This document shows, piece by piece, positions 54,215-61,357 of a stretch of DNA of 64,000 nucleotides; position 1 is the stretch's first letter, and each line of letters starts with the position of its first letter. The notes under the pieces were generated by a model. That model ran no database searches and was not told where the DNA came from. It saw only the letters and a program-made list of their open reading frames with translations. Source of the DNA: Mustelus asterias. Taxonomy: Eukaryota. The stretch lies in NCBI RefSeq assembly GCF_964213995.1, contig NW_027590160.1, positions 310,001 to 374,000 on the forward strand, given 5' to 3'. Both the position numbers and the translations under genes were made by a program.

Positions 54215-54253
54215 AGTTTTTGTGCAGGGGTGAGACTGCTTTCCATCACTGTG
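54215..54253 (-). promoter_or_regulatory. near-consensus 23-bp-spacer RSS
   Basis: CACAGTG-ATGGAAAGCAGTCTCACCCCTGC-ACAAAAACT. Confidence 0.97.
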
Positions 54254-54708
54254 ATAGCTGGAAAGCGCAGTAATACACGGCGACATCAGTCAGCTGCAGG
54301 TCCGAAACGGTTAAACTGGTGAATTTAGTCGATATCCGAAGCTCCATAGAGAAACGGTTTTTGGCAAAATCTGCTTTATCTTCACTGTTGTATGTATTTC
54401 TCCGCACTAGAAACTCGGGATGGTTTCCTGGGAGTTGTCGGTACCAGTGCAATACATAGCTGCTCCGTGTAGTTTCATAGTTGCAGCTTAATATGACCGC
54501 TGCTCCTTCTGACTTAACATCTGAGGGTAGCGGCTGAGTGACAGAATCTCCATGACTTAAATCTGGAAAATAATATATCAATAAGGAAAAGTTTAGTCCG
54601 GTGGCTGATTGAAATTTGATTCCAGTCAAGCTTGGGGAATGAAGGAGCGCATCCACATTTACCTGTCTGAAATATTCCCCACACAGCCCAGATGCTGAGC
54701 AGCCGCAT
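54254..54708 (-). CDS. intact TCR delta/alpha V segment (leader 54708-54663, V exon 54562-54254)
   Basis: MRLLSIWAVWGIFQT-D|LSHG-DSVTQPLPSDVKSEGAAVILSCNYETTRSSYVLHWYRQLPG..RFSMELRISTKFTSLTVSDLQLTDVAVYYCAFQL. Phase-1 GT/AG intron. Confidence 0.93.
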
Positions 54709-57330
54709 TGTCTCTGTCCGCTCTGTGAAAGGGGAGGGTTTGGATATTTAGCCACCCTTTCTAAATCCCGCCCCTCAATAACCTGCTGCCGTGTGTCAGG
54801 CTGTACTCGCCTCACTTCCTTGCTTTTCCATTGGTGCTGTGTGGCCGGCAGATCGCAAAGAGAATCACCCCGAGCTGCATTACAGTCACTACTCTTGCAG
54901 AGGAAATGCTTCCCGAATTATACACCAGAGTTGGGGAAGGAACATCTCCACTGAAGAAGGGAAAGGGTTAATTTTTTTTTTGTACTCAATGTATTTTGTG
55001 CCTAAAAGGTTGAACTTTGTACCTGGAATGTATCATAAACATAACCCTTCCTTATGGCTAGTCTCCCCTTTGTTTATATTGCTCCTGGTAGTAGTATAAG
55101 CCATTTGTTCATGTCTTTCATCTTTAACTTTTAGTAGCACAAGCCATTTGTTCATGGTTCCCTCGCTTGTTTATATCATTCTGATAAAACAGCCAGTTAA
55201 ATATAGATGTTAGTCTTTCTTTCCCGTAGGCTTGTCTATGATTTAAACAAAGGAAGCAGCTATCAAATGGTAGATTGCGAGAATGGCCGTTTGCAGGAGG
55301 ACTCCCACTGGAACAGCTGCAATCGAACACAGTCACTTCAAAGGAAAGGCTGCGGGAAGAGCAGGGGACCAGAGGTGGCACCTTGACTGCAACGACCAGG
55401 AGAATTGTGCTTTATGACCCAAGGATACCAAATAGCCTCTAACCATGATCCAGAGACTATCAGAAGCTGTTACAGGAACAATAATTTATGATCAAGGACT
55501 GCTAACTGGACTTTGCTGTATGGCTTGTATTGGGAATCCTGATGTATAAATGTCCACGCTTCTTGTGTTCAGAGAGAACTTTGGCTTCCGCTTTCAAGGG
55601 GTCAGGTTCTCCCTCAAGCTTGTGAGAATAAAGCGTGACTGTATTTTGACTCATACCAGCCTCAAGAAGTATATTTACCGACTTCACCCACCATAATTGT
55701 ACTAAAGAAAGTAAATATTTTTTGAATGAATTTGTCACTTTGTTTTCACGGATTTTGCTCCACTATCAGCGTAGTGATAACCATGACTGCAGTGAAATTC
55801 CTCTCACGGGCTTTAATTATTATTAATACATGAAGTAATGTCAGCGTTACTGGGAAGTCTAGATTTTCACTCCATTCCTAATTACCCTTGAGAAGGAGAG
55901 GGGGTGTGCAGCCTTTTAAACTGCTGTGGTCTCTCGGGACTATTAATATGGTGAAAGAGGATGTGTAGCATATCTATCTTTTCCAGTAATAGGAAGTTCC
56001 TCCCGGTGCTGCTGTTTCACTCCAAACCCCAAAGATGTGCAGGTTAGGTGGATTGGCCAAGCTAACTTGCCCCTTAGTGTCCCAAGATATGTGTGTAGGT
56101 TAAGGGGATTAGCGGGCTGAATATGTGGGGTTCCGGGGACAGTGCTTGAGTGGGATTGTTGTCGGGGAGTCGGTGCAGGTTCAGTGGGCCAAATGGCCTC
56201 CTCCTGCACTGTAGGGATTTTATGGTTTTATGATATTCAGGCAAGAAGACTTTTTAAAAATGTAAAAGCATTGACTGATAGGAACCTGCAGCTGACATTG
56301 GAGCACGGTCATTGTCGCATCACACGTCACTATAGGTAAAACATTGCAGTGTATTTTACCGTTCTGCTCTCAATGGTGAAAATGTTTTAGAGGGGAATGT
56401 TTTATTGAGAATGCCAACACCGAGAGTGCCTACCAGCGCTGTTGCTGAGGAACTTTGTGCCATAGTTCCGTAGATGCCTATTCAAGTAGCTATATTTGGT
56501 TGCACTGAACTGGGTTGCAATCATTAATGTCTATTTATGTTCGGCATAAAAGTAAGTATCTGGCATATATTCACTGAGAGCGAGTCAATATCCCAATGCT
56601 GAAACTCTAGTAAAGCTGAAACGCCCTCTGCTGGACTTTTTTCTAATTGTGTGTCTCAATGTTCCACTTCTCCCTGAGAGATTGCACAAGACTGAGTTGT
56701 GGTGTGGGAGATCCTTATACTTGGACAGGGTGCCTCGTGCAGTGGGGAAGAGAATGATATTTTACTCTGAGAGATTTGGTTTGAAGCACAGATTGGACAC
56801 AAGGATGGACATCCATTTTGCCTGATGCGGAAAGGAGTTTGGCAAAGTGATAATTTGTTCATTTTTCATTCAAGATTTATTTAAAAAATTCAGAGAACAT
56901 TTTACAGAAATGATTTTTTTCACGTTCACAGAAGAGAACAAAACGATTGATTTCCATATTGAGAAAAGAGCACGTGTGCTCTGAGCTGCCTAACATATGT
57001 ACAACTGTAACAGACACCAAAAAGAAAAAAAAAACAGGATCTCAACATAAAGAAAAGGAAACAATTGTATATAACGAATACGAAAAGGTAATTATTTATA
57101 CATGAAATGTAGGGGAAACTACGAGATACATTTAATTTACAACATTTATCTCGTAAATTTCCAGACTGAAAAGCAGAAATACCGGCCACGATTGCCTGAG
57201 TTAGAAATACTGAAAGATAAATTGAGAGAATTTTACTGTTAGAGTGACCAACAGCAGATAATATATTTGTGCCATGCAGAAATCTTAATAATCAGATGTG
57301 GGAAATCTACAGCGTCCAAAATTCAGTCGA

Positions 57331-57339
57331 TCACTTGAT
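57331..57339 (-). CDS. IGHM: IgM heavy chain TM2 exon (IK-stop)
   Basis: Pyrimidine tract ttacag|ATC AAG TGA. Candidate AATAAA at 56876-56881. Confidence 0.85.
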   Translation of the reverse strand: MK

Positions 57340-57476
57340 CTGTAAAAAAGAAGAAAGATAATGAAGCGGTTGTTTATGATCTGGGACATTATTAGAGTTT
57401 TTAATCAATTAATCATTTAGAGGTTTCTCAAACGGCTTCTGTCTGTTTGAAGTGTGAGTAAATTGAATATTCTCAC

Positions 57477-57595
57477 CTTCACCAGAGTGACACCAGCGCT
57501 GTAGGACATGCTCAGGCAGAATAGGACGACGAATGTGGAAGCGGTTGTCCAGATGTTGTTGTTATCATCCTCATTGTCTTCAATCCAGATGCGGT
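57477..57595 (-). CDS. IGHM: IgM heavy chain TM1 exon (not in the ORF track)
   Basis: cacag|DRIWIEDNEDDNNNIWTTASTFVVLFCLSMSYSAGVTLVK|gtgaga. Conserved antigen-receptor TM motif, phase matches the CH4 donor. Confidence 0.93.
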
Positions 57596-58149
57596 CTGTG
57601 GTATATATGGGGTCACAGCCGAGGAAACAGAATTAGATTGCTTTATTTATCCACTATATCTTACTGTTGTGTTTCATATTCTCCTTCGTAAGCTATTAAT
57701 TTATTCTCGGATTACGTTTTCATTGTATATCTACTGCAAATTTCGTGACACTCAGTCACCGAAATCTGTAACTGTCTCCACACCTGTTCTTCCTTTGCAT
57801 TCCTTTTACAATATATATTGGAAAATATGACAACCTTTCTTCAGTGTTAGTTCATTTTCGAACCATTTCGTGCAATCTATTCCTGGAGAATATTATGGTG
57901 GGTTTTAAGGGAGATTCGCTGATCTGTATATTTGTAAACTGTAAATGTTGCTGTTTAAGAGCTCGAATGTGAGTTCCCACCTTATTTGCTTATTTATGAT
58001 GGAAACACTTGTCATGAACTTATATCAGTTTCTCACCAAGAACGTTGTTCAGTGTATTTGTTGAATTATTTTGTTATAGAAACAATTATTGGAGAACATG
58101 TCTGCTCAAAAATAACTTGAATTATACTTTCAACAATAGCCTGGCCTTT

Positions 58150-59860: not shown

Positions 59861-60054
59861 TGATCATTTTACCGCCATTCTCTGTTGGAGGTGTGGGTGT
59901 GCACTGGATTACCTACTGTTTCCCTCTCTTTATTGGAGGAGTGGAGTTGCAGTGGATTAAATACTGTTCCCCTCCCTCCCTATGTCGGGGAAGTGCAGGT
60001 AGAGTGAATTAACTGCTCTCCCTCCAACATTATTTGTTGGGGATCTGGGGTGCC

Positions 60055-60345
60055 TTGGATGAACGTTTCGCATTGCTGCCTCACAGCGCCAGGGACGCGA
60101 GTTCAATTCCGGCTTTGGGTCATTGTCTGTATGGAGTTGGCATACTCTCCCCGTGCCTGCGTGGGTTTCCTCTGGGTGCTCCGAATTCTCCTCACAGTCC
60201 AAAGATGTGCGGGTTTGTTGGCCATGCAAATTTGCCCCTTACTGTCGGAGAGGTGTTCGGTTACGGGGATTGGGCCTGGGTGGGATTGTTGTCGGGGCAG
60301 GTTCGGTGGGCCGATTGGCCTCCTTCTGCACTGCTTGAATTGTAA
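60055..60345 (+). mobile_element. V-SINE inserted in a ~48-bp degenerate minisatellite (~59905-60540)
   Basis: V domain, flanking TGGATTAA..CCCT..GGAAGTG..AG units. Confidence 0.75.
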
Positions 60346-60923
60346 CTGATGCTTAATGCTCCCCATCCCACTCCCTTTATTGAGGAAGTGGGTTTACAGT
60401 GGATTGACTAATGCCCCTTGTCTCCCTTTTTTGGGAAGTGGGGGTATAGTAGGTTAATTATTGTCACACTCCTGACTCTCCGTTGGGAGAGAGAGAATCC
60501 AGTGTGTTAACAATTTCCTCCTCCCGCTCTTGGATGGGGATTGTTCCTCCATGTTTCTGTGTTGCTCTCACTTCAGTTCCCAGTGGGTGTGATGCAGCAG
60601 CTTAAAGCTGGCACCAATGGGTAATGGCATGGACAATGAGAGAAGCAGGAACACCGAGATCTAAATGCTGTGCTTGTTTGTCAGAAATGTTGAAATTGTC
60701 GGATTTATCCTCAGCGGGAGGAAAGTTGGTGAAGTTATTTTGCAAAATCTTGAAATGAATGTGTCAAACCCATGGTGTCTCTGAGCTGGGTTCACTGGTT
60801 CCACAAGACATGGGTCCGAGATTTGTAAATATCCCACCCTAACTAAATAGTTCTAACATTAGCAAAGCAGAAATACAACTAATGAAGCGATTGTGTATTT
60901 AAATTAGGTTGGAGGAAAAGCCC

Positions 60924-60938
60924 TTTATTATTTTTATT
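60924..60938 (-). terminator. tandem polyadenylation signals for secretory IgM
   Basis: AATAAA at 60938-60933 and 60929-60924, ~30 nt after the stop. Confidence 0.8.
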
Positions 60939-60965
60939 GCAGTTCGAAATGTAACCGATTGATTC

Positions 60966-61357
60966 TCAATAACATGAATTAACAGTGTCCATCAGTGCAA
61001 GGGAAATGTTCACAAAACTGGGTTTACCGCTGGATTTATCCACTGTTCTGTTGATGATCTTCAAGGGGATGGCTTCATGTCCCACCATACAGGAGTAAGA
61101 AGCGCCGCTGGCCCAATCCTCCGCTGCAATGGATAACAGGCTGTACATGAAGAAGGAGCTATTGCCGTTCTCCGCCATCACCTCGGTATTCTTGTAGTTC
61201 CCGGGATTCACCGGCTTGTCATTAACGTTCCACTTGACGAAGATTTCTCGAGGCGAGAAACCACTGACTAAGCAGCTGAGGGAGACGAATTTCTGAGCGG
61301 CGATTTCTTCTGCCGAGGGCAGGAGGACAGAGACGGACGGTTCCCATGGTTGTGGAT
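60966..61357 (-). CDS. IGHM: IgM heavy chain CH4 exon plus secretory tail, membrane donor at 61028/61027
   Basis: ctgcag|[48 protein letters not shown]...[49 protein letters not shown]. Confidence 0.95.

Follow-up and report, generated by a model that had tools for sequence, protein, structure and literature searches.

The closest described relative of the locus considered here is the elasmobranch antigen receptor complex (Flajnik et al. [quoted passage not shown] TCR alpha/delta V exons between IgH clusters are stated in that paper, its Table S1 lists interleaved IgM and TCR V, and linkage of Ig to TCR is found in PMC3964593 too, so the adjacency of IgM and TCR V is itself already published. 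The TCR loci of cartilaginous fish have been described as translocons (PMC6795676), nearly all jawed vertebrates are described as having delta tied to alpha (PMC12698447), and Table S1 of PMC12227049 gives one delta constant (C) gene beside alpha in catshark and stingray, the white and epaulette shark sheets listing no delta C. Rearrangement in trans between IgH V and TCR-delta, as well as TAILV, has been reported as somatic (Criscitiello 2010 and Deiss 2019, cited in PMC12227049 and PMC5931798). We analysed a 64,000-nucleotide stretch of the Mustelus asterias genome, the window (contig NW_027590160.1, here C128, positions 310001-374000); the other contigs named below, including the 20.4-Mb scaffold C71, belong to the same assembly, GCF_964213995.1. 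The explanation we favor, and consider quite probable, is that a complete IgM cluster, whose VH and 2 diversity (D) segments are pre-joined (VDD) and flanked by a recombination signal sequence (RSS) with a 12-nucleotide spacer (12-RSS), lies 2.6 kb from a TCR alpha/delta V within an intermixed complex of IgM, TCR V and 19 C-delta copies, likely produced by block duplication and germline RAG activity. On the broader proposition, that TCR-delta has turned from one nested translocon into some 10 antibody-like clusters among IgM, with pre-assembly by germline RAG that includes a heritable and usable hybrid on contig C138, we are evenly divided.

The IgM constant region in the window lies on the minus strand. 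Its CH4 exon with secretory tail (60966..61357) matches C1-set at 1e-22, has PDB matches, the best of which include human IgM C-mu, and has an open frame closing in TVNSCY-stop; the internal splice donor for the membrane form follows 61028 (phase 1), and the secretory poly(A) signal is at 60938-60933. Downstream are the first transmembrane (TM) exon, TM1 (57477..57595, open frame and splice fit), the TM2 exon encoding IK-stop (57331..57339) and the end of the membrane-form 3′ untranslated region (UTR; 56857..57072, with AATAAA at 56881), placed by comparison of paralogues. As the sequence-only reading had claimed, the splice phases are correct, and the spliced membrane and secreted forms are both in frame. 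On the same strand, 2.6 kb from the TM2 stop to its ATG, is the complete TCR V that this reading had also called (54254..54708), with a split leader (leader exon 54708-54663), an open V-set exon (54562-54254), TCR alpha/delta V kinship and an RSS with a 23-nucleotide spacer (23-RSS; 54215..54253) that reads CACAGTG-23-ACAAAAACT at 54253-54215, its heptamer exact and its nonamer one mismatch from consensus. The window has three 23-RSS within one mismatch of consensus, where 20 mononucleotide shuffles averaged 0.0. Among named chains that have a C region, P0002 comes closest (61%), and its C is of delta type. The junction recurs colinearly on contigs C270 (99.1% identity over 20.0 kb) and C71 (98.6% over 16.4 kb), and misassembly at 54.8-57.3 kb, which the sequence-only reading had raised, is ruled out by these three colinear contigs. 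Private substitutions are present in every one of the 3 copies, which implies at least 2 loci if the source is one diploid animal. The linkage of IgM to TCR alpha/delta V therefore stands, by the colinear junction in 3 contigs and by the TCR D, joining (J) and C segments that lie on C71 beside a near-identical block; for the C71 copy these segments also dispose of the idea that the V is an orphon, C128 being an unplaced contig.

The remainder of the cluster, CH1-3, JH and VH, was found on the same strand just past the window end: CH3 at C128 374498-374190, CH2 at 375180-374866, CH1 at 375685-375386, JH with a 23-RSS at 383904-383857, and a leader plus pre-joined VH-D1-D2 at 384808-384288 with its 12-RSS at 384287-384260. 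This is the shark IgM minicluster plan (VH, D1, D2, JH, CH1-CH4, secretory tail, TM1 and TM2) with D1 and D2 fused to VH: the VH continues without a break into sequence like that of D1 and D2 in a split cluster, and then into the 12-RSS and 3′ flank of D2. Since the VDD bears only a 12-RSS and stands opposite a J with a 23-RSS, the cluster is partly germline-joined (VDD-J); the untrimmed VDD-J join is in frame, and a single VDD-to-JH join in B cells would be enough to complete the H chain. No other VH scored is more than 73% identical to this one. All 3 copies have the same VDD, and because this VDD and its RSS are carried at about 92% identity in X12, a DNA run from a second organism, the join is old and inherited. 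It resembles the germline-joined shark IgM (VD-J and VDJ) of PMC5192425, PMC4279169 and PMC6795676 in that the VDD is pre-joined with one join left, and in that a fully joined copy exists, but differs from those in that here the same cluster is found in both states. Neither is it IgM1gj, a fully joined VDJ without C-mu2 (PMC4279169), since its J is unjoined and its CH2 present. The TM of this IgM (57477-57595) is atypical, with LFCLSMSYSA against LFFLSIFYST in 2 other clusters, and its CH2 (C128:374,866-375,180) has Trp for Cys, PAWEANG against PACEVNG in the same 2. A second IgM C region lies at C128:249-255 kb; an RSS and open reading frame scan of 255-285 kb gave no VH, D or JH signal for it.

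The fully joined state is found on C71. There the out-of-frame join of the VDD to J has cost the J 7 bases and added none, and exactly 389-390 bp between the VDD heptamer and J are missing. In X1 and X2, DNA runs of one sample, depth is 25.2 and 19.1 on the joined form, 22.5 and 22.6 on the unjoined spacer, and 47 and 40 on the flanks. Half the flank depth is more than a rare event in B cells would produce, and the join is therefore likely inherited; the roughly 1:1 ratio of joined to unjoined depth led us to reject a somatic origin. It is also recent, given that the joined and unjoined copies are 99.6-99.8% identical around it. In keeping with early decay, the joined copy (C71:7,316,600-7,325,400) has a leader Leu-to-Pro change and a donor of lesser strength at CH1. 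Among 17 further VH loci examined on C71, 9 are split, 2 are VDD-J, 2 are VDDJ and 4 were unresolved.

Scattered among the IgM clusters are 19 assembly copies of TCR-delta C, 3 of them on C71 (7.14, 11.04 and 12.27 Mb, with differing neighbors) and 16 on other contigs; all but one have a D upstream on the same contig, and in every copy all 3 coding exons (exon 1, connecting and TM) are open. The assignment to delta is based on the exon-1 motif CLASDFSP, which fits the trd signature CLXXXFXP (PMC10322711), on the upstream D (12/23) and J (12), and on kinship. The TM has Arg and Lys, and the product is 56% identical to a catshark protein with the name given in the IgWV-TCRD row of PMC12227049 Table S1. 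J-delta sets were mapped for 6 of the 19. Mismatches per about 1.5 kb number 0-42 within the main group and 184-210 between it and 3 diverged copies, which are 12-14% from the rest. A protein search for C-delta returned 8 clusters labelled Mustelus asterias, perhaps not independent of the assembly, 2 from Heptranchias and 1 each from four other sharks; one spliced C-delta contig came from X10, a presumed-RNA run of another organism that has no bearing on this genome. Tandem 23-RSS, 2 and 3 in number, stand behind the NAR-TCR supporting V-delta at C71:7,091,239-7,091,340 and 12,229,725-12,229,890, and at C71:14,376,741 and C110:113,634 the 5′ 12-RSS of D-delta abuts another heptamer with no D between them, in the manner of a signal joint.

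TCR-alpha lies elsewhere. Only 2 C-alpha genes were found genome-wide, each with its J-alpha array, at C71:18.37-18.43 Mb (34 J) and C546:137-242 kb (142 J), and their identity of 72% makes them paralogues and not alleles. Pfam PF09291 identified C-alpha in none of 17 candidates, and it was recovered through its TM exon instead. No C-delta exon 1 precedes J-alpha across all of C546 (249 kb) or within C71:18.26-18.43 Mb, no J-alpha array was found in the 108 kb after the C-delta at C71:7.14 Mb, and the canonical nested order, 5′-trdc-(traj)n-trac-3′, is thus missing at these loci. A D-like relic, its RSS spacer shortened, is all that remains on C546. Both J-alpha arrays are preceded by a homologous 12-RSS element that has no J motif, which we take to recall the mammalian psi-J-alpha.

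Joins are present in the delta cassettes as well. The D is free at 12 of the 19 delta D loci and joined upstream at the other 7: to a supporting V-delta at 5, to a conventional V at 1 and to an IgM D1 at 1. Contigs C96, C119 and C436 have one identical junction of supporting V and D despite their diverged C genes, which points to inheritance, and the C401 join holds 2 bases that we presume to be P nucleotides. On C138 (217,450-218,600, junction at 217,694-217,725), an intact IgM leader-VH (23-RSS) is followed by an IgM D1, flanked by a 12-RSS, that is fused with no added bases to D-delta with its 23-RSS, and then by 4 J-delta and C-delta, the V and the J still unjoined. Over its upstream 4.8 kb it matches the split IgM of C71:7.06 Mb at 99.2% identity. 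As judged from its sequence, this fusion is the very IgM-to-delta join that had been proposed for the window, made by another cluster and standing in assembly DNA. It is like trans-rearrangement in bringing an IgM V to D-delta, J-delta and C-delta, and unlike it in that the join is in the assembly and V and J are unjoined. That the fusion is inherited seems to us the better bet, by a modest margin. The first of its J has a degenerate RSS, and the later J are apparently usable.

The most serious challenge to the reading of a multiplied and germline-joined delta is that the C-delta copies and joined forms are mostly assembly artefacts, contributed by unpurged haplotypes and by rearranged lymphocyte molecules. 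The region is fragmented, with many unplaced contigs; one C-delta pair, C850 and C71:12.27 Mb, has 0 mismatches over 1.5 kb (99.9% identity over 13.7 kb), and the joins on C138, C850, C401 and at C71:11.02 Mb are each single. Such an origin for most of the copies is nonetheless unlikely. Three copies share one scaffold, and a group is diverged by the 12-14% given above. In X1, depth on 5 C-delta contigs is 117-166, with values of 164-166 against 47 on the IgM block, and is proportional to assembly copy counts, at 10.8-12.2 per assembly copy sharing 31-mers. In X12, C-delta depth is 30-31, against 22-26 for the IgM orthologue. The VDDJ join, moreover, stands at half the flank depth in 2 runs, and one V-D junction is common to 3 diverged contigs. 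Hence, read depth supports about 5-10 C-delta loci per haploid genome as the likely range, with a best guess of about 10: taking a depth of 47 as that of one diploid locus gives about 5, and counting every assembly copy as a single chromosome copy, an equivalence with which the 3 IgM copies agree as well, gives about 10.

Several points weigh against the favored reading. The depth unit is uncalibrated on a known single locus, so that haploid loci could number from about 5 up to 19, and contig read depth does not equal copy number. Many of the assembly copies are likely haplotype duplicates, as in the case of C850 and C71:12.27 Mb. X1 and X2 possibly derive from the assembly's own animal, which makes them a test of dosage and not of independence. 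The C138 fusion occurs in one contig only across the assembly and could be a somatic T-cell product taken into it, and the single-contig V-D joins may likewise be somatic. C128 itself has no TCR C match and is not placed on a chromosome. Finally, use of this IgM, this V and the delta cassettes is predicted from sequence.

The sequence-only reading took the window for the physical border between one IgM cluster and a TCR V array, at which the VH and D of the cluster would join TCR-delta D and J in cis. The linkage is real, C71 does hold delta cassettes, the closest of them about 200 kb away from the paralogous copy, and IgM V on TCR-delta chains has been reported (PMC12227049, PMC5931798), yet as a whole this account is very unlikely. 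TCR V segments or relics flank the cluster on both sides, and on C71, among the matches listed for IgM CH4 and TCR V over the assembly, CH4 extends over 1.6-19.3 Mb and the family of the window V over 6.5-17.4 Mb; a different IgM ends 4.3 kb from a NAR-TCR V. The intermixing spans megabases (>10 Mb), and the adjacency is not a border. As to joining, an RSS with a 12 spacer pairs with one that has a 23 spacer. In the delta cassette at C71:7.117-7.142 Mb, D has 12/23 RSS and J a 12-RSS, as is the case wherever these were scored. This cluster has no free D, and its V and D1 offer no 23-RSS for the 12-RSS of D-delta or J-delta; its VDD has only a 12-RSS, and since the D-delta 5′ and J-delta RSS are also 12, a productive join is barred, short of 12/12 joining or recourse to a cryptic 23-RSS. 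Moreover, the nearest cassette is upstream in the same orientation, so that a join would fall on the excised circle. For the VDD, the J of NAR-TCR (23-RSS) would be formally allowed, and none is suitably placed in C128:225-450 kb, 305-310 kb excepted. The proposed join of VH and D to TCR-delta thus fails for this cluster but fits split clusters, one of which, at C71:7.061 Mb, has the same orientation as a D-delta 56 kb downstream of it, and C138 shows such a product. This VH would not feed TCR-delta; in T cells the neighboring V, with its 23-RSS, would join the D-delta or J-delta of a distant cassette, or J-alpha, independently of IgM.

The tight spacing could also be functional, the V sharing regulatory elements with the IgM 3′ end, and all 10 paralogues compared (of 11 close paralogues of the window V) do preserve some 1.4 kb of the flank upstream, with the IgM poly(A) region in it, at about 91%, but one duplication breakpoint explains that flank, IgM is lost in all 10, the adjoining V is broken in 2 of the 3 junction copies (C270 and C71 have a common 1-bp insertion that shifts the frame; 1 copy is intact), and of the alternatives this is the least credible. 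The paralogues retain the flank up to window position 57072, within the IgM 3′ UTR, and then diverge; since all 10 break there, adjacency to IgM would be ancestral for this V family and lost on V amplification. The family may thus have been amplified out of an IgM-adjacent ancestor, its paralogues having kept no more of the IgM 3′ UTR than the final 190 bases or so, and the 2.6-kb spacing is likely to be inherited history and not a functional unit. About 740 bp (54952..55688) is present in the window copy and absent from all 10 paralogues.

Elsewhere in the window are a TCR V 3′ fragment (52147..52271, minus strand; RSS-like element at 52185 with a 24-nt spacer), 2 TCR V pseudogenes (51002..51330, plus strand, with a stop, a frameshift and a 23-RSS at 51292; 49957..50244, minus strand, with an in-frame stop and a 23-RSS at 49995) and a TCR V relic (45170..45440, plus strand) with a shortened framework 3, for which an RSS scan found none. 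Retroelement-like repeats occupy 1-1470, 27300-27952 and 47043-49615; 47063-48009 and 48667-49615 form an inverted repeat pair (95% identity), and 6000-25400 and 30600-41400 are related by a degenerate internal duplication of about 10 kb (79-89% identity).

Against described systems, the complex most resembles the elasmobranch one of PMC12227049, including its catshark scaffold, which runs IgM, TAILV, IgH-like V, TCR-delta; that paper describes TCR alpha/delta as a translocon, whereas here 19 delta C copies lie apart from 2 alpha loci. In having delta outside alpha and 2 TRA loci it is like the newt TRA/TRD separation (PMC12698447), but newts have 1 or 2 TRDC on another chromosome and no D, as opposed to some 5-10 or more here, on an IgH-bearing scaffold and related contigs. 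Marsupial TCR-mu (PMC2275272) likewise has repeated clusters in which a rearranging V-D-J and a pre-joined supporting V accompany their own C, a plan similar to that of C96 and C850; unlike TCR-mu, the cassettes here use a bona fide delta C, their supporting V goes no further than a join to D, and in most of them the D is free. The likeness is convergent, not orthologous. As to how this state arose, the delta cassette would likely have left its seat ahead of J-alpha and multiplied together with its IgM, NAR-TCR and Ig-like V neighbors, and continued RAG cleavage of these blocks in germ cells would likely have produced the VDDJ, V-D and IgM-D1/D-delta joins.

No earlier report of multiple shark delta C, or of a fusion of the C138 type, was found in the literature searched, which missed 4 key papers (Ott 2021, Hsu 2016, Criscitiello 2010 and Deiss 2019) and the supplementary PDF of PMC12227049; in PMC7677710 no passage on TCR was found. 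Within that literature, the shark antigen receptor complex would have a new form here, its delta cassette being multiplied, separated from alpha and bearing joins that are recent and inherited. With several intact delta cassettes, not all of which alpha rearrangement would delete, questions would arise about lineage exclusion between alpha and delta, and about allelic exclusion from one delta locus to another. Through recent joins that are inherited, one of them between Ig and TCR, it would become possible to study directly how RAG acts in germ cells and how somatic Ig-TCR chimaeras give rise to new receptor loci. If the broader proposition is true, trans-rearrangement has been fixed in the germ line, and the complex would be a living model for the origin of TCR-mu-like and VH-delta loci.

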